Assembly (NCBI GenBank): GCA_031271005.1
Contig: JAISWT010000111.1
Span: 3,428-67,427, forward strand
Direction: 5' to 3'
Origin: Prevotellaceae bacterium
GTDB lineage: Bacteria > Bacteroidota > Bacteroidia > Bacteroidales > Paludibacteraceae
Length of the DNA stretch: 64,000 bases
In this document: positions 3 through 23,914 of the stretch, piece by piece
How the letters are laid out: every line of letters starts with the position of its first letter
Numbering within the stretch: the stretch's first letter is position 1
Made by a program: the position numbers and the translations under genes
Notes under the pieces: model-generated
Database searches by the model: none
Seen by the model: only the letters and a program-made list of their open reading frames with translations
What the model was told of the DNA's origin: nothing

Positions 3-806
3 ACTCATCAAATAGGCAGAGAATTAACCGTCAGATATGCCACTCAGCGCTGGGGCAGCGACTCTTGGCTTACCGTCGACACTGTGGTTACGGAAACAGT
101 GTACGAAAATTCGATAGAAGTACCTGCGCCACTGACAAATACAAATTTCGATGTACAAGTGTCCGACCGTTTTGCAAACGATTTTGGAATATCCGTATTT
201 TCGGGGCAAAGCGCTACATATCAGGCGTTTGCAGTGAGAAATAAACTTCTTACCAGCACCTTAACTCGCGATGCCGAAAACGAAGACCAGCGACCAGACA
301 ATCCTATCTTTTTGGAGGGTTCTGCGCCGCTTGATATTCACTTTATAGCCAATCCGTCTGCCGCCGTTACACACAATCAGTGGAATGTTTTTAAAGAAAA
401 TCAGTTCTTCTTTGTGCGCAATGAAGCCGATTTTAACTACTCTTTCAGTGAATATGGGCGATATAAAGTGGCGCTTGTGTCGAGCAATGAGCAATGTTCT
501 TACTCAGATTCGGTGGTTGTGGACATTAGCGAGTCCATACTGGAGGCGCCAAACGTTTTTACTCCCAACGGCGATGGCGTCAATGACGAATTTCGCGTTG
601 CGTATCGCTCATTGCGCAGTTTTCAGATGGCGGTTTACAATCGCTGGGGCAACAAAATTTACACATCAAACGACCCACAACACGGCTGGAACGGCAATAT
701 AGGGAATAGAGAAGCCGCAGCAGGACCGTATTTCTACTACATAAAAGCCGAAGGTACGGACGGCAAAAAGTACGTGAAAAAAGGCGATATAAATTTGATA
801 AGATAG
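3..806 (+). CDS. Secreted protein, 3' part only, ending in a T9SS type-B (gliding-motility-associated) C-terminal sorting domain
   Basis: The frame is open from nt 3 with no in-frame stop before the GTG at 84, so the gene starts upstream of the window. The last ~90 aa carry the type-B CTD pattern APNVFTPNGDGVNDEF..MAVYNRWGNKIY..HGWNG..GPYFYYIKA. TAG stop at 804-806. Confidence 0.85.
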   Translation, partial: THQIGRELTVRYATQRWGSDSWLTVDTVVTETVYENSIEVPAPLTNTNFDVQVSDRFANDFGISVFSGQSATYQAFAVRNKLLTSTLTRDAENEDQRPDNPIFLEGSAPLDIHFIANPSAAVTHNQWNVFKENQFFFVRNEADFNYSFSEYGRYKVALVSSNEQCSYSDSVVVDISESILEAPNVFTPNGDGVNDEFRVAYRSLRSFQMAVYNRWGNKIYTSNDPQHGWNGNIGNREAAAGPYFYYIKAEGTDGKKYVKKGDINLIR

Positions 807-13029: not shown

Positions 13030-15921
13030 TTAATCCTGCGAATGGTCGCGGTTATGAGCGGCATATTCTATTGCCCAAGCCAGATAGTTGCAGAACAGAT
13101 ATGAGTTATACACATTGCCTGCGCTAGTTGTCGGGTGACCGCCAGTGCCGCTAAAGTTTTTGGCGCGCGGCTTATAATCCGAAGTGGTAACAAGCGGGTA
13201 TGTAACTGTGGAAGTATTATCCCACGTGTTACTTGCCAGCCATCCTCCATCTCCGCAATAGAGCAATCCTTTTGTAGGATCGAAGAACATAAATACACCG
13301 CCATTGCTGCGCGTTGCCATCACCACTCCATTTGGCGCTGCGGCAGCAAGCGCGGCGGGACTCGTAATATAACTGCCCGTGCCATTATCGTTACCAACTG
13401 CCGTAATATCTACACCCTGACTGAATGGACCGTTGAGTATAGGATTGTTTTCGTAGTCGGCAGTACCCGGCGTCTGCAGAATGCCAAACTTGTAACGTCC
13501 GCCTTCATACGCCGCAGTGAGATTGCTTACGCCATATATTGTATTCATTATGCCTTCTATGTAAGAACCGGGCGTTTCGCATGAATACATCAACGCGCCG
13601 CCTCTTTGCAGGAACTCGGCAAGCACCTTAGCGCGGTTATTGCCGGGATTTCCGAATCCATTTACATATTGAATCAACACAATGTCTGCATCTCTGATAG
13701 CAGTATTCAGTTCCGCCTCTGTGTCAACATCCGTAGCGCTGGTAATGCGCGTTAAAGTAACGCCGCCTACAGGCACTGTGCCGTTGTAACCAAAGTTCAC
13801 ATCGGAGCCAAGCAGCGAATATCCTACAGAATTTGGATTATTCAGCGAAAAGTCGGCGCTGCCTAAGGATACTATCTTCATTGCACGGTAGCCAAACCAT
13901 AATGGTACCTCTATCGTTCCTGTCATTATGCCCGAAGATGGATCATCGGCAGATGTATAATAATAAATAACATCAGTGTATTTGCCCGGCGTTACCGTAA
14001 TAGGCAATGGATTTCCGGTTCTTGTATTCCAAACATACTGGGCAGGGTCTGTGGTTTTGTTTCCGCCTGCATCCACAAAGTCTCCGTCTTCGTCTATCTT
14101 AAACGGTGCAAGTGTAATTGTGGCAGCGCCAAGAGTATGTCCGCCCGGCAGCGGTGGCAATTCTCCTTTTGCCACATAGACAATTGTATCTGCTCCTTCG
14201 CCAAATTTCACGCGGAAATTATAGTCGCCCGGTATCGAGTAACTTGTCGTCAGGTTTATGCCTGATACAGGCGTATTGCCTGCCGCATCAATGGTATAGA
14301 CGCCCTGAGTTGCTGCGTTCATACTTGCAGTAGTATAATTACCTGCTATGGCAGTGTTGTACAGGTATCTCATTCCGTTAGCATGAGCGTTTATTCCTGA
14401 TGTTGGCGCCTGCTGTGCCAGTGTGATGTCTGCAAAACGCGCCACCGAAGGTTTAACCACTATTGCCGGTCGGCAGAACAGGTCTTCGGTATAATACCCG
14501 CTTTCACTTGACCAGTCATCTGCGTTGCCTGCTATTCCGTCCGGTCCGTCGGCATCGCCCGCACTGAACATGAGTTCTATAGGCGTATCGTACACAGTAG
14601 TATTCGTCTTTCTGTTCGCATTTGAAGCGTCTTTTGCTCCCACAGGATAAAGCGTCAGCGTATTGGTAGTGGATAGCAGCGTAACTTGGCTTGCGGTATA
14701 ACTCGTTCCGTTGTCTGTACAGGTAGCAAACTGCACGCCTGCAAAGTTAGCATACACTATATATTGTCCGGGCGCAGTTACCTCAATCGGTATTTTGATA
14801 TACGCATCGCTAACAAACTCCTCGCCGTTGCGCACGGTATCGGTATCAAACAGCGCACTAACCAAAGACAGATGTATAATCAAATTCGGGTCGGAGCATT
14901 GTACGCGGTTGAGTTTGAAGCCGCCCTTGCTCAGTTGAATATTGAACTCATAGTTACTTGCGGTTTTGCTTGTAGTTGTACTCATCAAAAAGTGGTCGCT
15001 GCCTGTGCCATACACATTAGCCTGTCCGGCAGCCACAGGTACAAGCACAGTAACTGTTTGCGGGAAACTGCCTGCGGGGTTGTAGCCCTGCGCATTGGCA
15101 GTTTCGCCTGTTGCGGCAAACGAGTATCCGTTCACTTCCGAAGTGGTAAGCCCCCAGGTACCCGGATTGTATACCAGCAGTTTAACCATCACTTTTTTTG
15201 TTCCGTCATCAAGCGGAGTAAGGATATTCCATTTCGGGTCCATCTGTTCCACGCTCAGAATAATATAGTCGGGGTCTCGCGGCAGCACGGTAATCGGAAT
15301 ATCGCAGGTTTGCAATACGCCGTTCATAGTAACATTTGCCGTATGGTTGCCTGACGTTGCCGGAAAGCCTGCTCCCGGCACAATAACATCAAAATAACCA
15401 GCCTTGGGAAAAATGCCTTTTGTGCTGAAATAATAGGTTTCACTGTTATTGCCGGCATCTTTCACGGCTGCCTCAATGCTGTAAGTACCGGGCTGGCTCA
15501 CATTTACAGGTATCCTCAAATAGTTGTTCACCGTCAGTGGCTCGTCAATAAGGTATGTTCCTATTGCTTGTGCATTGCTACAGTCGGCAAGTTCAAACAC
15601 TGCCGGTGGCGGCGTTCCGCAAAGATTCCACCAGCGTGCATCAGAGAGGTTATAGTATCTGAAGCAACTGCTGATGGTATCGTAGAACATCAGCCCGTCG
15701 TTATTAACGCCAACCATACTGTCAGGTTTTACTGCCACCACATCCTCAATAGTGATATTGCTTTCATTGGATTCCGGAAATTTTACTCCCTGAATTTCTC
15801 CTTCTTTTGATTTTATCTCAAGTACGGCATTGGGGCGTGGATTATCAGTATTAATACCCACCTGTGCATTCGCTGACACTGCCGTCAATGCTATTGCTAT
15901 ATACATTATTATTTTTTTCAT
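13030..15921 (-). CDS. Large secreted repeat-module protein of uncharacterised family (paralog A)
   Basis: 963 aa. Signal peptide MKKIIMYIAIALTAVSANA/QV, head motif VGINTDNPRPNAVLEI..DGLMFYDT..CFRYYN..W.NLCGTPPPAV, several Cys-bounded beta-rich modules (..VNVSQPGTYSIEA..YYFSTKGIFP..), and a conserved C-terminal ~250 aa domain. Clear paralog of 16123-18603. Confidence 0.85.
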   Translation of the reverse strand: MKKIIMYIAIALTAVSANAQVGINTDNPRPNAVLEIKSKEGEIQGVKFPESNESNITIEDVVAVKPDSMVGVNNDGLMFYDTISSCFRYYNLSDARWWNLCGTPPPAVFELADCSNAQAIGTYLIDEPLTVNNYLRIPVNVSQPGTYSIEAAVKDAGNNSETYYFSTKGIFPKAGYFDVIVPGAGFPATSGNHTANVTMNGVLQTCDIPITVLPRDPDYIILSVEQMDPKWNILTPLDDGTKKVMVKLLVYNPGTWGLTTSEVNGYSFAATGETANAQGYNPAGSFPQTVTVLVPVAAGQANVYGTGSDHFLMSTTTSKTASNYEFNIQLSKGGFKLNRVQCSDPNLIIHLSLVSALFDTDTVRNGEEFVSDAYIKIPIEVTAPGQYIVYANFAGVQFATCTDNGTSYTASQVTLLSTTNTLTLYPVGAKDASNANRKTNTTVYDTPIELMFSAGDADGPDGIAGNADDWSSESGYYTEDLFCRPAIVVKPSVARFADITLAQQAPTSGINAHANGMRYLYNTAIAGNYTTASMNAATQGVYTIDAAGNTPVSGINLTTSYSIPGDYNFRVKFGEGADTIVYVAKGELPPLPGGHTLGAATITLAPFKIDEDGDFVDAGGNKTTDPAQYVWNTRTGNPLPITVTPGKYTDVIYYYTSADDPSSGIMTGTIEVPLWFGYRAMKIVSLGSADFSLNNPNSVGYSLLGSDVNFGYNGTVPVGGVTLTRITSATDVDTEAELNTAIRDADIVLIQYVNGFGNPGNNRAKVLAEFLQRGGALMYSCETPGSYIEGIMNTIYGVSNLTAAYEGGRYKFGILQTPGTADYENNPILNGPFSQGVDITAVGNDNGTGSYITSPAALAAAAPNGVVMATRSNGGVFMFFDPTKGLLYCGDGGWLASNTWDNTSTVTYPLVTTSDYKPRAKNFSGTGGHPTTSAGNVYNSYLFCNYLAWAIEYAAHNRDHSQD

Positions 15922-16122
15922 TATTATTTTTTATAAAATTAATAAATAGGCTTCGTTTTAAGCCTTTCCCAAAAGGAAAGTTAAATTGTAATTATCTCAT
16001 TTGCGCGATGCTGTTTTAGCATCGGCAATATGCGCTAACTCTGCACGCACAAATTTTCGTACAATTTTTACAGTCTGTTCTGTTCCTTTTCAGGAATGGC
16101 TTAATAACAAAGTTGTTTTCCT

Positions 16123-18603
16123 TTACGGAATAATAGCGCTTGTGTTACAGTTTGCAGCCGCCCAGTCTATCGCCCATGCCAGCGCGTTTCCAAAGAGGAA
16201 ACTGTTTTGTACCATATTGCCGCCACTGTAAGGTTTCTCTTTCGGCGTATTGTCCGAATTAATCTGCAAGGGGTAAATCGTTGTACTGCTTACAGAGGCT
16301 GTAGGGTGTCCTGCCAGCCAGCCCGAATCGCAAATATACAGGAAGCCTTTGGTTTCATGGCGGAACGCCCATACGTTGCCTGTCGACTGCACTTTTATCA
16401 ACGATTTTAATGGCGCAGACACGGTTGGCTGTTGAACAGGCATCGCATTCGCCACGTCATTGCCTATGGCTTTCCCTCGCAAATCCCCAAACTTACCGTT
16501 AGTAACGGGGTCGTCTATACTTTCCACAGTATTAATATATGAGTTGCCGCCGCCGCCTAAACCAAGAGGCAGCGTGACGCCGCAAATTTTGTTTATCAGG
16601 TCTTGTGCATAATTCGGATATAATTCCGAAGAGAAAATCAACGCGCCGCCTTTATTATTTACAAAATTTGCAAGAATTTGGCGGTCGCCTTCCTGATTTG
16701 GCTGATAGTTGTATCCCACAACGATAATATCAATTTTATTGTTATTTATAAGATTTCTCAGGGTGCTTGTACTGGGCGTTGTGCCTCCGTTGAATGCTTT
16801 GAGCGACTGTACGCCAACTGTTCCGTTAGGACCAAAGTTGTTTGCCGAACTCCACAGTTTGCGTGCATTATAAGTAGCGCTGTAACCGCTGTACGGGTCG
16901 CCGCCAAGGAACAGAATGTTCATTGAACGCTGTACAAAATATACCGTTTGCGAGTTGGTTACAGATGAACCGCTTGGACCTGTGTATGAAAGGGACACAG
17001 ATTTAGGACCCGAACTTGCAGGACGATTGGTTGCAGGGTCAACAGGTTTCAATGTTATGGTAGAATTTCCTGCATTAACATTGCCCTGACCTGACCACGT
17101 AACGCCATTTACGGTTGTCGTAAGGTTGTATTCGCCTGCCATATCCACCTGAACGGAAAGCACCATATCGCAAGGCGCATCTACGCCGCCCGGAAAAGGA
17201 TTCATAATATACTGATTCTGATTGGAGAATGTAGTAATAGAAATGTTGCGGAACGATGCTGTTGCAGGGGCAACGGTAACCAACTTCGGATAGGCGCACT
17301 TTTCGTAACCACCTTTGGAACTGGCAATATTAATGGGAAATTCACCCGCCTGATTCGGCTTCTGACCAAGCGTTACCGGATAGAGCGTAACAGTGTTGGG
17401 ACCGCTATTAAGCGTTACTTCGCCCGGCGAGCCTGCCGCGCCTGTAGAGAACGATAGTCCTGCAAAGTTTGCAGTAATCTGCGTTGTGCCGCCTGTAGAA
17501 GCAGTTACAGGAAGCGTAATTACAGAACCGTCCGGAATAGCCACGCCCTGCTTTAGCGTTCCGAAATTACCCAGTGTAATAGCCTGACAATCTATGCTAA
17601 AAGCAACTTCTGCCAGCGTAATGGTCAGCGGATAAACGGTGTTACAGAGGTTCGCGCCCACCGAAGTAACCTGAAAGGTGTTAGTATGCGGGCTGTTACT
17701 GGTCGCCTTTTTGCCTGCCACTACAGGAATATTTACCATAACCGTTTGCGGAAAATTGCCGTTAGGGTTATAGCCCGATGCCTGTGAGAGTTGTCCTGTG
17801 CCGCTAAAATCATATCCGTTTATTTCGGAAGTGGTAATAGTATACGGACCCGGTTTATTAACCTGCAATGTAACTTCGGCATAATAGTTAGGATTAAACT
17901 CCTGATTTATGGGCCATGGCGTAGATGGAATTTGCTTTGCTCCGATAATACAGAAATCGGGCGTGCCTTCCTTAATCTCAAGCGGGAAGTCGCAAGTCTG
18001 TTCCATTCCGTTAAACACAAATTTGATTATGTTTGTACCCGCAACATCGGGCATTCCTGCGCCCTGAATATTTACCGTATATGTTCCCGTGCGCGGAAAA
18101 GTGCCATTGGTTGAGAAATAATAGCCGTTGCCATTATTTTCGCTTGTTGAAGCGGTAATGCTGTACGTGCCGGGCGAGGTAACATCAATTTTGACCTGTA
18201 AATAGTTGTTTATACCAAATACTTGATCTTCGATATACACGCCAACGGCGGTAATACTGGTACATTCTATTGTTCCCACAGCGGGAGGCGGCGTTCCGCA
18301 AAGCGAGTACCAACTGGAGGAAGATACCTTGTAATAGTTGAAACAGCCTGTCTGCATATTATACAGCGTTAACCCGTCCGCATCAAAGGGGTCGCCAAGA
18401 GCGTCTAAACCATTTAATACTACGTCGCCAAGCGACACGTCTGACGGCGCTTGAGGAAGAATAACGCCTTTATCGGAGTTCGGGGCTGTTATATGCAATG
18501 CGGAATTGGGACTTGGAACTTCGGTGTTAATGGCTACCTGAGCATTAACGTTACAAATACTGAAAAGAATTATTATTATGGATAAGATTTTTTTTGTTTT
18601 CAT
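16123..18603 (-). CDS. Large secreted repeat-module protein of uncharacterised family (paralog B)
   Basis: 826 aa. Signal peptide ..CNVNA/QV, head VAINTEVPSPNSALHI..DGLTLYNM..CFNYYK..WYSLCGTPPPAV, modules ..IDVTSPGTYSITA..YYFSTNGTFP.. and EINGYDFSGTG..GYNPNGNFPQTV. C-terminus GGALIFSSE..GFLYICDSGWLAG..FLFGNALAWAIDWAA matches paralog A. Confidence 0.85.
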   Translation of the reverse strand: MKTKKILSIIIILFSICNVNAQVAINTEVPSPNSALHITAPNSDKGVILPQAPSDVSLGDVVLNGLDALGDPFDADGLTLYNMQTGCFNYYKVSSSSWYSLCGTPPPAVGTIECTSITAVGVYIEDQVFGINNYLQVKIDVTSPGTYSITASTSENNGNGYYFSTNGTFPRTGTYTVNIQGAGMPDVAGTNIIKFVFNGMEQTCDFPLEIKEGTPDFCIIGAKQIPSTPWPINQEFNPNYYAEVTLQVNKPGPYTITTSEINGYDFSGTGQLSQASGYNPNGNFPQTVMVNIPVVAGKKATSNSPHTNTFQVTSVGANLCNTVYPLTITLAEVAFSIDCQAITLGNFGTLKQGVAIPDGSVITLPVTASTGGTTQITANFAGLSFSTGAAGSPGEVTLNSGPNTVTLYPVTLGQKPNQAGEFPINIASSKGGYEKCAYPKLVTVAPATASFRNISITTFSNQNQYIMNPFPGGVDAPCDMVLSVQVDMAGEYNLTTTVNGVTWSGQGNVNAGNSTITLKPVDPATNRPASSGPKSVSLSYTGPSGSSVTNSQTVYFVQRSMNILFLGGDPYSGYSATYNARKLWSSANNFGPNGTVGVQSLKAFNGGTTPSTSTLRNLINNNKIDIIVVGYNYQPNQEGDRQILANFVNNKGGALIFSSELYPNYAQDLINKICGVTLPLGLGGGGNSYINTVESIDDPVTNGKFGDLRGKAIGNDVANAMPVQQPTVSAPLKSLIKVQSTGNVWAFRHETKGFLYICDSGWLAGHPTASVSSTTIYPLQINSDNTPKEKPYSGGNMVQNSFLFGNALAWAIDWAAANCNTSAIIP

Positions 18604-18681
18604 TATTATTTTTTATTAATTATTATTATTTTTTTTAAAAAAAATGACTGCCTGTAATTATTATCCGAAAGTTTATTTAGC

Positions 18682-18721
18682 GGAGACTTCTAAAAATCAG
18701 ATTATTTTCAGGAGTTCCCTG
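18682..18721. repeat. Dispersed ~40-bp motif, copy i
   Basis: ggagacttctaaaaatcagattattttcaggagttccctg. Its left half recurs at 18960, 20779 and 28766 (rc), and its right half at 5763-5779. Confidence 0.75.
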
Positions 18722-18959
18722 TTGTTTAATTAACAAATAATTATATAACCAACCGCTACGACACGATAATTATGTCTGTTGTAATAAATACGGTTGCCGT
18801 CAGATAGTATTCGGCATTTCATTAAGATTGAAAATTGTTTTTACAAACACATGTAATTTTACCGGGAATATGCGCTGCACTATGTTTTGTACAGTCCCGC
18901 AATTCTGCGCAAAAAACAATATATGCGCAATATTGCAAAACCTGTTGGTTTTAATTTAT

Positions 18960-18997
18960 GGGAACTTCTAAAAATCAGATTATTTCATTAGTTCTCT
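18960..18997. repeat. Dispersed motif, copy ii
   Basis: gggaacttctaaaaatcagattatttcattagttctct. Confidence 0.7.
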
Positions 18998-19063: not shown

Positions 19064-19684
19064 TTATGACTGTAAAATTACGGAACGTGGTGCAGGAGGC
19101 GGTAAATTACCCTGTGCAGAAGCAGTAGCATTGTTGTTAGAAAAGAAAAGGTAGTAATTTTTAGATAAGCGCTTTATGGGGATATATAAAGCATTAAAAC
19201 AGATATTGTTTTTATTTTTTATTATGTGTTTTTGCAGTTTCTTATTGCTGCTGTTTTGCGGAGGCAATATGCCTGTAATGTGAACTGTGCCGCCGCTTAA
19301 AGTCGCATTGTTAAAAGGCAAAAACAGATTGCAAACAACTTCTTTGTGTATCTTTTCGGCTTTTGCATCAGCCTCTGATTTCTGTTTGCGTGCATGGTCG
19401 TAAATTTTTGACTGAACGCCAGACAATGCCCTATGCTGTTCAATAACAAAGCGAATAGTTTTGTCTTTTCCTGCCGACAACTGTTGATTGTTGAAAATCT
19501 GCGCGTCTTTGCTGATAAAAACGGTAATGCTGTTTTCTCCGCTATCGTTATTTTCGATTTGCGCGAAAATATGAGCGAAACAAACCTGCAAAATACTCAC
19601 AACCGAAAGCAGTACAAAAAATTTGCACTGTATTACCAAATTTAAAAATTTTCTAAATATGTGAAACGGTTTTCTTTCGTTCAT
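19064..19684 (-). CDS. Small membrane-anchored/secreted protein of unknown function (paralog 1)
   Basis: 206 aa from the ATG at 19684 (the track ORF starts earlier at a TTG). Basic N-terminus, hydrophobic segment KFFVLLSVVSILQVCFA, and conserved blocks DAQIFNNQQL and NLFLPFNNA..ILPPQNSSNKKLQKHIIKNKNNICF..YLFFSNNN..QGNLPPP shared with 21209-21847. Confidence 0.7.
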   Translation of the reverse strand: MNERKPFHIFRKFLNLVIQCKFFVLLSVVSILQVCFAHIFAQIENNDSGENSITVFISKDAQIFNNQQLSAGKDKTIRFVIEQHRALSGVQSKIYDHARKQKSEADAKAEKIHKEVVCNLFLPFNNATLSGGTVHITGILPPQNSSNKKLQKHIIKNKNNICFNALYIPIKRLSKNYYLFFSNNNATASAQGNLPPPAPRSVILQS

Positions 19685-19779
19685 ATAAGTATTGTATGCG
19701 TATTCAACTGCTAACTCAACTGTTTTTTTTAACAAAAAAATATGCGAAAAACGTAATTAACAAGGTTTTATACAAATAC

Positions 19780-19882
19780 TGTTAGTAGTTGTTAGTTGTT
19801 AGTTGCTAATTGCTAATTACTAATTGCTAATTGCTACTTGCTACTTGCTAATTGCTAATTGCCACTTGCTAATTGCTAATTG
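19780..19882. repeat. Tandem heptamer arrays (GTTAGTT, then TTGCTAA/TTGCTAC x ~11)
   Basis: Read directly from the sequence. Confidence 0.85.
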
Positions 19883-19919
19883 TTTTCTGGGATGAGGGGT
19901 GAGGTATAAACATAAAATT

Positions 19920-20203: not shown

Positions 20204-20778
20204 CAAAACTTATTTGGAATAAATAATATTTTTTTAAAAAAAGTAACTTTTTTTTCTTAAAAGTTGTTTACAACAACGAGAGGGCGAGAAGGCGAAACCT
20301 GTAATTTCATGTAAATTGTGTTAATTCTATAAAATAAAAAAACTTAAAACTGAGTCAGGAAAATTGCACATCACAATCGTATATGCCAAACAGATACGCC
20401 TACCGCCGGATATTATTTGCGGTATTCGATTGATAATTAGGTATTATGTATCAGCCTGTTCGCTCACGAAATCCCTTAAATTATTTCGCAAACGACATAA
20501 CTGTATTTTAATTCCTGTTTTACTGTAAAAACAGAATAATGTGTGAAATTTCAAAGAACTCTTGTCATTTGTAAACTATCTTATGACACAGTTTTACACC
20601 GTAAGGTGCAAACGAACGTTTTAAGCAGCGAGAGCAGAGGCAAAACGCATATTGAGCGAAAGCGAAAAATAAGTTTTGGCTCTGCCGAGTCGCGCAAAAC
20701 GACTAAATTTATTGAACTGTTGTTACAAATTTGTAACTAACTTATGATAATCAATTGGGGAATTAATTTTTTATAAAT

Positions 20779-20806
20779 GGGGAGTTCTAAAAATTAGATT
20801 TTTTTT
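20779..20806. repeat. Dispersed motif, copy iii
   Basis: ggggagttctaaaaattagatttttttt. Confidence 0.6.
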
Positions 20807-21208: not shown

Positions 21209-21847
21209 TCAAACGCGGTTTCCCAGTTTAATCACAAAGTTCACAGAGGTATCCGGGGGAGGTAAATTGCCTTGCGAATATGCAAGACCGTTGTCGTTAG
21301 AAAAGAAGAGATAAGTGTTTTTGGAAAGATACTTTGTTGGGATAGACAAAGTACTGAAGCAAATATTGTTTCTATTTTTGATTGCGTGTTTTTGCAGTTT
21401 TTTATTGCTGTTGTTTTGCTGTGGCAATATGGCTGCGTAACCTGTGCTGCTGCCAACGAAAACAGCATTGTCGAAAGGTAAAAACAAGTTGTAAGAACTT
21501 TCTTTGCAAGTCTTTTTTATTTTCGCATCGGTTTGCAGGTTCTGTTCATCGCATTTGCTTTGCACGTTTCTGTGAGTTCGCGAGCGCGGTTGTGCTTTGG
21601 ATTCATAAACAATGTGTACACTCCCGCCTCCGCCTGTCAGCAACTGCTGATTGTTGAAAATCTGCGCGTTTTTGCCAACATAAACGGTAACTTCATCCTC
21701 GCTTACACTCGCATCGTTTGTTTGCGCAGCAACGGAAGCAAAACAGCCTTGCACTATACTCACAACAAAGAACAGTACAAAGTATTTACTCCGTATCTTC
21801 AAATTGAAAATTTTTCCAAATATGTAAAACAGTCTGTTGCCGGTCAT
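21209..21847 (-). CDS. Small membrane-anchored/secreted protein of unknown function (paralog 2)
   Basis: 212 aa. The N-terminus MTGNRLFYIFGKIFNLKIRSKYFVLFFVVSIVQGCFA and blocks NAQIFNNQQL and NLFLPFDNA..ILPQQNNSNKKLQKHAIKNRNNICF..YLFFSNDN..QGNLPPP align with 19064-19684. Confidence 0.7.
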   Translation of the reverse strand: MTGNRLFYIFGKIFNLKIRSKYFVLFFVVSIVQGCFASVAAQTNDASVSEDEVTVYVGKNAQIFNNQQLLTGGGGSVHIVYESKAQPRSRTHRNVQSKCDEQNLQTDAKIKKTCKESSYNLFLPFDNAVFVGSSTGYAAILPQQNNSNKKLQKHAIKNRNNICFSTLSIPTKYLSKNTYLFFSNDNGLAYSQGNLPPPDTSVNFVIKLGNRV

Positions 21848-22450: not shown

Positions 22451-23914
22451 TTATTCGTTGCTGAAATGGAACTCAGCACGCCTGTTGATTCTGTATTTCG
22501 AAGGCGGTTCGAGCAGTCGTCCATTGCCGTTTGCAACGATGCGGTCTGCACTGATTCCATATACTTTAACGAGTTCCTCTTTGACGCGGTTAGCGCGGTT
22601 GACACTCAACTGTTTGTTGTACTTGTCGCTGCCAACGTAGTCGCAGTAAGCGCGTACTTCGCACAACACGTTCGGGTTCTGCTTCATCAGTTGTGCTGCT
22701 TTATACACTTCCTGCTGTGCCGTTTCGTCAAGGTTGTACTTGTCGAAGTCGAAGAACACTGCCGGCAACTGGTCAACTTTGCCCTGTTCGCTGATTGTCC
22801 GTCCGTAGAAATCCACAAGCACATTAGGTGGTGTGTTGGGTTCGAGGTCGCGGATGTTTGGCACTCCGTCTCCGTCATCGTCTGGCCCGTCAGGACTCAT
22901 ATATTCGCGCAGTTGGTCTATGTCGCCTCTGATAGAATCAATCTGGTCTTGCAGATTGCGAATTTCGTCATCGTAACTCTTTGGCATAACAGTTTGCTTG
23001 CGCAGCGCTTCTTGAGCGGTAGCAAGCGCTTCGTTATCGTATTCGCGCCATGTTATATTACGTGTGTGCGGACGCTGCGAATTAAATTTCCAGCGCAGAT
23101 TTACAAAGCCTGAAGCGATAAAATCGTTTGTAACGCCGCCATAATTCAACCCCAATCCGCTCTCTAATTTCTCTTTGCTGCCTTCCAAATCGTCGCGGTT
23201 GTAAGAGGTGTAATTAAACTTCAACCCTAAAGCCAAATTCTTGGTAAAGTTGTACTCTATGTTCACACCAACGGGTACAATTACTGCCCATGCATTATGC
23301 ACATCGGCGCCGTGGGCATCCAAGAAATATGTACTTGCATCATCAATCTGTGGCTGGTCGGCATGGTTTGCACCGGCGCTCGGCGCAACGATACATTTGT
23401 ATCCTTCGGCGCCCTGCTGCTTGCTCGTGCGTTGAAAGCCCCAATAGTCTACATTAAAATATGCAGCGCCCAAGCCAATGTTAGCCCAAATACCCCAATG
23501 TGTTGTGATATTTTTGTTGAAAACGCGCAGCAAATTGGCGCTTGCAAACAAATATCCCTGATGGTGAATACCTTCAGAAATTTGATACTTGTTAGCTTCT
23601 ATTTCTCTGTAGCGAAGTTCGCTGTTTGCCTGAACAGGCAAGTAGTAATACTGCAACCCAAGACTGACGGTCGGGTTAAACGTGTGTTCCAATGCCACAC
23701 CACCCGACAGTTTTCCACGAACAGACTCGAAGAAATTCTTATCGTATTGAGTTACATCGCCATCGAAAGCGTTCAGACCACCTTCCAAACTAATGGACCA
23801 GCGCGTAAAATCAAAATAACTTCTGTATTTTACCTGACTGGTATTTCCGCTGGTTTGTGCCACAGCAGCAAGCACAAAACACGACATCAAGAAAACTGAA
23901 ATACTTTTTCTCAT
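22451..23914 (-). CDS. OmpA-family outer membrane protein
   Basis: 487 aa. Signal peptide, beta-barrel-like N-terminal half, thrombospondin-type Asp-rich repeat DDDGDGVPNIRD, and a C-terminal OmpA domain (FDFDKYNL..LSVNRANRVKE..NRRAEF). Confidence 0.88.
   Translation of the reverse strand: MRKSISVFLMSCFVLAAVAQTSGNTSQVKYRSYFDFTRWSISLEGGLNAFDGDVTQYDKNFFESVRGKLSGGVALEHTFNPTVSLGLQYYYLPVQANSELRYREIEANKYQISEGIHHQGYLFASANLLRVFNKNITTHWGIWANIGLGAAYFNVDYWGFQRTSKQQGAEGYKCIVAPSAGANHADQPQIDDASTYFLDAHGADVHNAWAVIVPVGVNIEYNFTKNLALGLKFNYTSYNRDDLEGSKEKLESGLGLNYGGVTNDFIASGFVNLRWKFNSQRPHTRNITWREYDNEALATAQEALRKQTVMPKSYDDEIRNLQDQIDSIRGDIDQLREYMSPDGPDDDGDGVPNIRDLEPNTPPNVLVDFYGRTISEQGKVDQLPAVFFDFDKYNLDETAQQEVYKAAQLMKQNPNVLCEVRAYCDYVGSDKYNKQLSVNRANRVKEELVKVYGISADRIVANGNGRLLEPPSKYRINRRAEFHFSNE

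Follow-up and report, generated by a model that had tools for sequence, protein, structure and literature searches.

A conserved tandem gene pair predicted to encode exported PTL-head proteins with an uncatalogued amidotransferase-fold tip in a Prevotellaceae bacterium

The gene pair and its two proteins

We describe a tandem pair of genes for two large paralogous proteins in a 64,000-nucleotide stretch of DNA from a Prevotellaceae bacterium (assembly GCA_031271005.1, contig JAISWT010000111.1, positions 3,428 to 67,427). This stretch, referred to below as the window, is part of contig C77 of an assembly of 2.8 Mb in 245 contigs. Both genes are on the minus strand; the first of the pair (16123..18603) is an open reading frame (ORF) encoding an 826-aa protein, P0002, and the second (13030..15921) encodes a 963-aa protein, P0001. 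The initial annotation of this DNA had described the two as tandem paralogues, and both the ORF positions and all of the alignment blocks it quoted were reproduced exactly on the minus strand. By BLASTP the proteins are 31% identical over 969 columns, end to end (E 1e-97). The aligned blocks include VGINTDNPRPN/VAINTEVPSPN, CF.YY...W..LCGTPPPAV, NNYL... and YYFST.G.FP, as well as E(V/I)NGY.F..TG...GYNP.G.FPQTV, GGAL..S.E, G(L/F)LY..D.GWLA and a ...AWAI..AA tail. P0001 and P0002 have a common architecture consisting of a signal peptide, a PTL-type head, tandem immunoglobulin-like (Ig-like) sandwiches and a C-terminal domain of ~270 aa. A third paralogue, P0019 (683 aa), is encoded on contig C5 of the same genome.

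The leaders of both proteins read as typical signal peptides, with an Ala-x-Ala end followed by Gln. In P0001 the signal peptide covers aa 1-19 (15865..15921, minus strand) with cleavage at ANA/QV, and the mature N-terminal Gln is conserved in the family; in P0002 it covers aa 1-21 (18541..18603, minus strand) with cleavage at VNA/QV. The sole leader Cys is in P0002 and is missing from the P0002 orthologues, so neither protein is a lipoprotein; no conserved lipobox Cys was found in the two leaders, and neither protein has a pilin Pfam match. A type IX secretion system (T9SS) C-terminal domain, whether type A (Por_Secre_tail) or type B (CHU_C), was likewise not found in either protein by Pfam and NCBIfam scans at E<=1; as a positive control, the CHU_C model detects three other ORFs in the same genome. 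Instead of a T9SS domain, the C-termini of P0001 and P0002 are occupied by the amidotransferase-fold domain described below. The signal peptides and the lack of a lipobox or T9SS domain are thus as originally annotated. Pfam and NCBIfam scans gave nothing significant for the two large proteins or for the two small proteins encoded upstream of them.

A lack of conservation in related genomes had been named at the outset as something that would speak against the pair. The order of an 826-type gene followed by a 963-type gene is kept in the sister genome (70% and 60% identity, respectively, in three independent assemblies), in GCA_025999615.1 (66% and 60%) and in a JGI contig (51% and 41%), and the P0001 orthologues are 969, 972 and 894 aa long. 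The genes flanking the pair differ in each genome compared. The nearest relatives among public records carry the labels 'MAG: Paludibacter sp.' and 'Bacteroidia bacterium FACS1894180'. Compared with the sister genome, the ratio of nonsynonymous to synonymous substitution rates (dN/dS) is 0.12 for P0002 and 0.18 for P0001, with dS near saturation; judged by these ratios, the pair is under purifying selection. Another pair of genes from the family defined by the C-terminal domain stands in tandem in a further genome (G015), and single members without a partner are found in genomes G127 and G344 and, as P0019, in the genome studied here.

The head follows directly after the signal peptide, at aa ~20-105 of P0001 (15607..15864, minus strand) and aa 22-106 of P0002 (18286..18540, minus strand). 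Precomputed annotation assigns PF26696 'PTL_trimer' to P0002, to most of its relatives and to the 972-aa orthologue of P0001 from GCA_025999615.1. A non-circular hidden Markov model (HMM), built from 43 heads of relatives that are all <40% identical to the heads in the window, was searched against the 8587 ORFs of the genome and matched P0001 at aa 18-105 (E 1.7e-11) and P0002 at aa 20-106 (E 4e-13). In relatives the canonical head reads ...KGfLlPRlT..qRdAI....GL.iYNT...C..yW.....W...CG. Canonical heads of relatives that carry the same C-terminal domain match phage genes for 'tail protein' or 'minor tail protein' (E 1e-11 to 5e-4) and PHROG virion and tail-fibre families. By these comparisons the heads of P0001 and P0002 appear to belong to PF26696, a module common with phage tail proteins, whose name and meaning are taken here from precomputed annotation labels and indirect tests; a literature search on the name PF26696/PTL_trimer found no publication. 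A catalogued head that is common with phage tail proteins points to a three-chain fibre, and the head probably joins three chains. In the monomer model of P0002 the head has a predicted local distance difference test score (pLDDT) of 38-64, and the sandwiches that follow score mostly 80-95. The low confidence of the monomer head fits a module that folds only upon oligomerisation, without proving it.

Between the head and the C-terminal domain lies an Ig-like region that would form a stalk. In P0002 it covers aa ~107-554 (16942..18285, minus strand) and is predicted from the alignment to hold about four beta-sandwiches. The AlphaFold2 (AF2) model of P0002 aa 22-345 (ma75251477ed1) contains two of these sandwiches, with a low-confidence stretch near model residues 254-260. 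Foldseek matched the stalk model to tandem Ig-like domains of unrelated proteins, such as transglutaminase C-barrels, integrin legs, the invasin InvE and the S-layer protein SbsC, in line with the multi-Ig middle that had been proposed from the sequence. The corresponding region of P0001, aa ~106-671 (13909..15606, minus strand), was delimited by alignment, and we infer its Ig-like fold from the P0002 model; the alignment gives P0001 more modules than the approximately four of P0002, plus an Asp-rich insert, DADGPDGIAGNADDW, that is missing in P0002. The conserved Cys residues are C87/C102 in the head, C114/C204 flanking the first Ig-like module, and C339. A description of the modules as Cys-bounded, as in the initial annotation, therefore holds for the first module only.

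The C-terminal domain and its scaffolds

The C-terminal domain, referred to here as the tip, covers aa ~555-826 of P0002 (16126..16941, minus strand) and aa ~672-963 of P0001 (13033..13908, minus strand); the two copies are 36% identical (E 1.9e-26), and P0001 keeps the positions conserved in the family. An AF2 model of P0002 aa 545-826 (m7eebccb1994a), made from a 15-sequence alignment, reached a pLDDT of 90.7 and a predicted TM-score of 0.90. When this model was searched against the PDB with Foldseek, the top 20 matches were all of GATase1 type, with a probability of 1.00 and E from 1e-6 to 1e-3. They included PabA (8hx8, E 1.4e-6), TrpG, GuaA, homoserine O-succinyltransferase (HTS) and the glutaminase domains of CTP synthase, and the TM-scores against amidotransferases were 0.40-0.48 for the query and about 0.6 for the target. 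A phage-tip origin of the domain was considered and rejected, as the viral structure library BFVD returned amidotransferases only and no phage tip.

The catalytic residues of this superfamily are not retained. In an alignment of 129 tip domains the residue at the nucleophile elbow is variable (S25, T18, C17, D15, Q13, N12), being S in P0002 and C in P0001, and none of the positions that are >=80% identical is His, Ser or Cys. The Cys-His-Glu triad is missing, because the elbow residue varies and there is no highly conserved His. The positions conserved at >=86% (>=91% except G567) are G567, N589-F590-G591, D625, G653, G703, F705, G714, D716, D759, G761, P778, P787, N800, N806, W810 and A811. 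Together, the model and the alignment indicate that the tip has the predicted fold of a class I glutamine amidotransferase without the catalytic triad.

At the level of sequence the tip domain is uncatalogued, being covered by no Pfam, NCBIfam or PDB sequence model. No Pfam match was obtained for the tips of the two window proteins (E<=1) or of 62 relatives (E<=0.05), and PDB searches by sequence and by profile, using single sequences, a whole-family profile and a tip profile, gave no match. The initial annotation had suggested a flavodoxin fold like that of ThuA, DUF4350 or ABC_transp_aux. These three are members of the class I glutamine-amidotransferase structural superfamily, and to that extent the suggestion of the fold was borne out by Foldseek; membership in any of the three families was not, since none of their profiles matched P0001 or P0002 (E<=1) or any of the 62 relatives (E<=0.05). 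The ThuA and ABC_transp_aux HMMs match nothing in the genome, and the DUF4350 HMM finds another gene, to whose protein hhalign aligned the tip profile with a probability of 0.3%. We take the closer functional analogues of the tip to be non-catalytic members of the fold, such as ThuA, the 'GIFT' domain of GldG/IFT52 and the GH42 trimerisation domain; no profile match to any of them was obtained.

Among 1.84 billion representatives of clusters formed at 50% identity, all searched with phmmer, 271 proteins have the tip domain at E<=0.001 and 110 at E<=1e-10. The domain is rare by genome; a phylum-wide sample of 400 other genomes yielded it twice (E<=1e-5), and it occurs in 5 of 40 closer relatives. 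Among relatives with near-full-length matches, the match ended no more than 10 residues from the C-terminus in 117 of 129. The N-terminal parts of 159 tip proteins fall into a PTL head (111 proteins, about 70%), lipoproteins (about 20-25) and short or fragmentary sequences (23), and almost all of the 111 heads begin between residues 10 and 50. Most of the lipoprotein-type tip proteins tested match P_gingi_FimA, Mfa2, Fimbrillin_C or BACON, that is, they have type V pilin-like N-termini. In one genome of the same family (G024, locus L019, 8271-9158) the tip domain stands alone in a 295-aa lipoprotein with the leader ...VVLCAGCGG. Placement at the C-terminus of several scaffolds suggests a displayed binding tip, and from its distribution and its scaffolds the domain looks like a portable tip or cargo that two kinds of surface scaffold carry at their far end.

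The reverse also holds, in that heads of this type carry other ends. In the genome studied here a PTL-type head is present in at least 15 ORFs, of which only three end in the amidotransferase-fold tip. The rest number at least 12 and lie on contigs C165, C193, C182, C36, C18, C137, C210 and others; several of them have a different tip type ending in ...RCVAE or ...RCIKHS, and some are cut off by contig ends or stops. The pair was initially put forward as a candidate uncharacterised system of its own. This does not stand, as its head is the catalogued PF26696 and the genome holds at least 15 head-bearing proteins with other tips among them; the pair is therefore one tip class of a large family and not an isolated system.

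Small exported proteins and gene neighbourhood

Upstream of the pair, also on the minus strand, are two genes for small proteins that we call GNLPPP proteins after their C-terminal end. Copy 1 (21209..21847) translates to 212 aa; copy 2 (19064..19735) gives 206 aa when read from an ATG at 19684 and is 51% identical to copy 1, with a dN/dS between copies of 0.34. Both have a basic N-terminus, one hydrophobic segment, an A/Q cleavage site and the GNLPPP end. Homologues were found only within the same genus. In G001 and in the sister genome, G002, every homologue lies directly upstream of PTL-head genes with differing C-terminal parts: genes for 243-, 274- and 664-aa proteins in G001, and for 219- and 241-aa proteins and the 843/969 pair in G002. 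The link between small and large genes that had been noticed in the window thus recurs in other genomes. Since the GNLPPP gene precedes PTL-head genes bearing four different tips, its association is with the head and not with the amidotransferase-fold tip. The small exported protein is therefore a candidate assembly or anchoring partner, and gene order suggests that it probably acts in fibre assembly or attachment.

Each GNLPPP copy in the window has one N-terminal unit of ~55 aa (TVFVGDNS.ISN..AI.G.FSFVY..ERKT...), and GNLPPP-family proteins with two or three repeats of the unit are encoded in G002 (L030, 4309-5229; L031, 499-1626). In GCA_025999615.1 the pair has no accompanying GNLPPP gene and is preceded by a divergent gene for a 338-aa membrane protein (L046, 1496-2512, minus strand) whose C-terminus looks by eye like a LuxR-type helix-turn-helix. 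In the JGI contig (L045) a 215-aa ORF ending in ...IRPPP lies upstream of the pair; it was considered as a GNLPPP member and rejected, there being no statistical similarity.

The spacers around the small genes contain two kinds of repeat. At window positions 19772-19889, 37 bp upstream of the TTG start of copy 2, are about 17 tandem 7-nt units (TAGTTGT / TAATTGC / TACTTGC). Slippage in this array could shift promoter spacing, which would make it a candidate phase-variation switch. A 36-nt motif (..GGAGACTTCTAAAAATCAGATTATTT) is present in three copies (18672-18707, 18950-18985 and 20769-20804), two of them within the 460 bp that precede the 826-aa gene and the third between the small genes; the motif may serve as a shared promoter or regulatory element. 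The locus yielded no convincing invertible promoter, and sigma-70-type promoter scans carry no information in Bacteroidota. By tblastn, no remnant of a head gene is present in the 1.5 kb that separate the small genes.

The pair is surrounded in the window by genes for YidC, a tRNA methyltransferase, a Mur ligase/alanine racemase, DUF1599 and an ABC ATPase. In the sister genome the cluster lies in a different chromosomal context, again without phage genes. A gene at 22451-23914 (minus strand) encodes a 487-aa OmpA-family protein with an N-terminal barrel-like part, an Asp-rich stretch, DGPDDDGDGVPNIRD, and then the OmpA domain; it was rejected as a member of the cluster, as it is not beside the pair in the sister genome, the JGI contig or GCA_025999615.1. 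The genome has a T9SS, with SprA, PorP/SprF and CHU_C proteins, none of which adjoins the pair. At the edge of the window, 12 kb from the pair, positions 3-806 (plus strand) cover the 3' end of an ORF of 432 aa; its C-terminus matches CHU_C (E 1e-20), and no PorP/SprF gene adjoins it. A different arrangement is found in G127, a Flavobacteriia-type genome, where one locus (L036, 3997-15459) encodes, in this order, a 1574-aa PTL-head protein, an 801-aa member of the tip family, a 414-aa CHU_C protein, PorP/SprF and an OmpA/TPR/PD40 protein. This gene order, with its CHU_C type-B T9SS protein, hints at one possible route to the surface.

Interpretation and comparison with known systems

With confidence only a little above even, we read the pair as exported, fibre-like PTL-head proteins, composed of a phage-tail-type joining head, an Ig-like stalk and a triad-less, adhesive amidotransferase-fold tip. 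The chains would be exported by Sec and cleaved by signal peptidase I to leave an N-terminal Gln, and the ~85-residue head would join them, probably in threes, beside the cell envelope. About four sandwiches in the 826-aa protein, and more in the 963-aa protein, would form a stalk that projects the end domain from the cell surface, and the ~270-residue tip would bind a ligand as a non-catalytic, adhesive module. The GNLPPP proteins would probably help to assemble or attach the resulting fibres. We consider the tip non-catalytic and ligand-binding because it also ends type V pilin-like and stand-alone lipoproteins, and because other heads carry other tips; its presence on two unrelated display scaffolds, PTL fibres and type V pilin-like lipoproteins, argues for a portable binding module.

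Several observations weigh against this reading. P0001 itself is without a precomputed PF26696 match. The window heads have diverged, with PQAPSD.. in P0002 in place of PR..T..qR, and neither head gave a phage or PHROG match when searched directly; the phage relationship of these heads is only transitive, because they are too diverged for a direct match. The TM-scores of the tip to amidotransferases are modest at 0.40-0.48 of the query. The conserved carboxylates D625, D716, D759 and E/Q/D660 could equally form an active site. Lastly, beyond the signal peptide, no secretion or anchoring signal was found in P0001 or P0002, which leaves room for a periplasmic location.

The carboxylates bear on a different reading, in which the C-terminal domain works outside the cell as an enzyme, for instance a hydrolase or lyase that depends on carboxylates and attacks polysaccharide or peptide, and the head and stalk serve only to present it. 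The fold is that of an enzyme superfamily, D625, D716 and D759 are 93-98% conserved and N800 and N806 98-100%, E, Q or D stands beside the elbow, and the relatives of this organism come from gut-type metagenomes, a habitat in which polymer degradation is common. We nevertheless regard an enzyme as unlikely; the canonical nucleophile position is variable, the highly conserved positions include no His, Ser or Cys, no enzyme family is matched by sequence, and the domain occupies the binding-tip position on two kinds of adhesive scaffold. A further question is whether the two paralogues act together, with their heads joining them, and possibly the GNLPPP protein as well, in a single hetero-oligomeric fibre. 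This would explain the kept gene order, which is conserved in four assemblies down to 51/41% identity with both genes under purifying selection, and it is consistent with the second tandem family pair in G015 and with a small protein that tracks the head. Family members without a partner (G127, G344, P0019) speak against such a fibre, however, and tandem duplicates are also the simple outcome of gene duplication, which leaves co-assembly unlikely in our estimate.

The lack of a sorting signal other than the signal peptide, with no T9SS domain, no lipobox and no T9SS partner gene adjoining the pair in this genome, would suit structural or envelope-associated proteins that are not surface adhesins and stay in the periplasm or on the inner side of the outer membrane. 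Against this, type V pilin-like lipoproteins, which carry this tip too, are surface structures; the Flavobacteriia-type family member adjoins a CHU_C type-B T9SS protein, PorP/SprF and an OmpA-like protein; and the analogous mosaic adhesive trimer (MAT) fibres of Bdellovibrio are surface-displayed with just a signal peptide and a conserved N-terminal domain (PMC10769870). We think a periplasmic location distinctly unlikely for these reasons. A head module common with phage tail proteins also raises the possibility that the pair are tail-fibre genes of a prophage or tailocin and not cellular genes. Such an origin is very unlikely because both proteins have Sec signal peptides and the neighbouring genes are housekeeping genes; in addition, no phage structural genes are nearby, the tip has no phage match, and the sister-genome cluster lies in another context that is also free of phage genes.

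The preferred reading of fibre-like PTL-head proteins can be taken further, to a self-contained, T9SS-independent system in which the GNLPPP protein is a dedicated partner that assembles or anchors phage-fibre-type, possibly mixed-chain, surface fibres, and in which the tip is a new adhesin or glycan-binding domain exchanged with type V pili. We hold this larger proposal to be improbable. What the locus contains is a real, conserved and selected pair that is an unusual variant of a large, catalogued and experimentally untouched class of Bacteroidota PTL-head proteins. Its new elements are the uncatalogued tip domain, which type V pilin-like proteins also carry, and the lineage-specific small partner gene. 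PTL-head proteins are very common in Bacteroidota, and our search of the literature found no study on their surface routing, their surface retention or the ligands of their tips. The locus gives two handles on this surface question, namely a tip domain with an enzyme fold but no catalytic residues, and the small partner, and what they reveal would bear on a large class of surface proteins of gut and environmental Bacteroidota.

Among known systems, the uncharacterised PF26696 proteins of Bacteroidota are similar in having a signal peptide followed at once by a Q-V-G-I-x-T ... G-L-x-x-Y-N ... C..Y....W..(L)CG head, in the variability of what follows at the C-terminus and in the large number of paralogues that one genome encodes. 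Unlike other PF26696 proteins, the window pair has an uncatalogued amidotransferase-fold tip, heads without PR.T..qR and a genus-specific small gene preceding it. Class I glutamine amidotransferases (PabA, TrpG, GuaA and CTP synthase; 8hx8, 1qdl, 8rp0, 2d7j) have the same kind of alpha/beta fold as the tip, but the tip is without the Cys-His-Glu triad, is predicted to be extracytoplasmic and has no sequence-level match to them. Among type V pilus (FimA/Mfa) family proteins of Bacteroidales with C-terminal extensions, relatives that end in the same tip domain have a lipobox, P_gingi_FimA/Mfa2/Fimbrillin_C matches and a BACON domain, whereas the window proteins have no lipobox or pilin domain and carry a PTL head and an Ig-like stalk instead. 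In the MAT fibres of Bdellovibrio bacteriovorus the signal peptide is followed directly by a conserved N-terminal domain, believed to lie beside the cell surface, and the adhesive tips at the C-terminus vary; the fibres are related to phage fibres, are displayed on the surface without a known anchor and have a trimeric beta-helical shaft, in many cases with an S74 chaperone (Caulton et al. 2024, PMC10769870). The pair described here resembles them in combining a conserved domain after the signal peptide with an exchangeable C-terminal tip. This likeness is in layout only. The predicted stalk of the window proteins is made of Ig-like sandwiches, no Peptidase_S74 match was found in them, and the organisms belong to different phyla.

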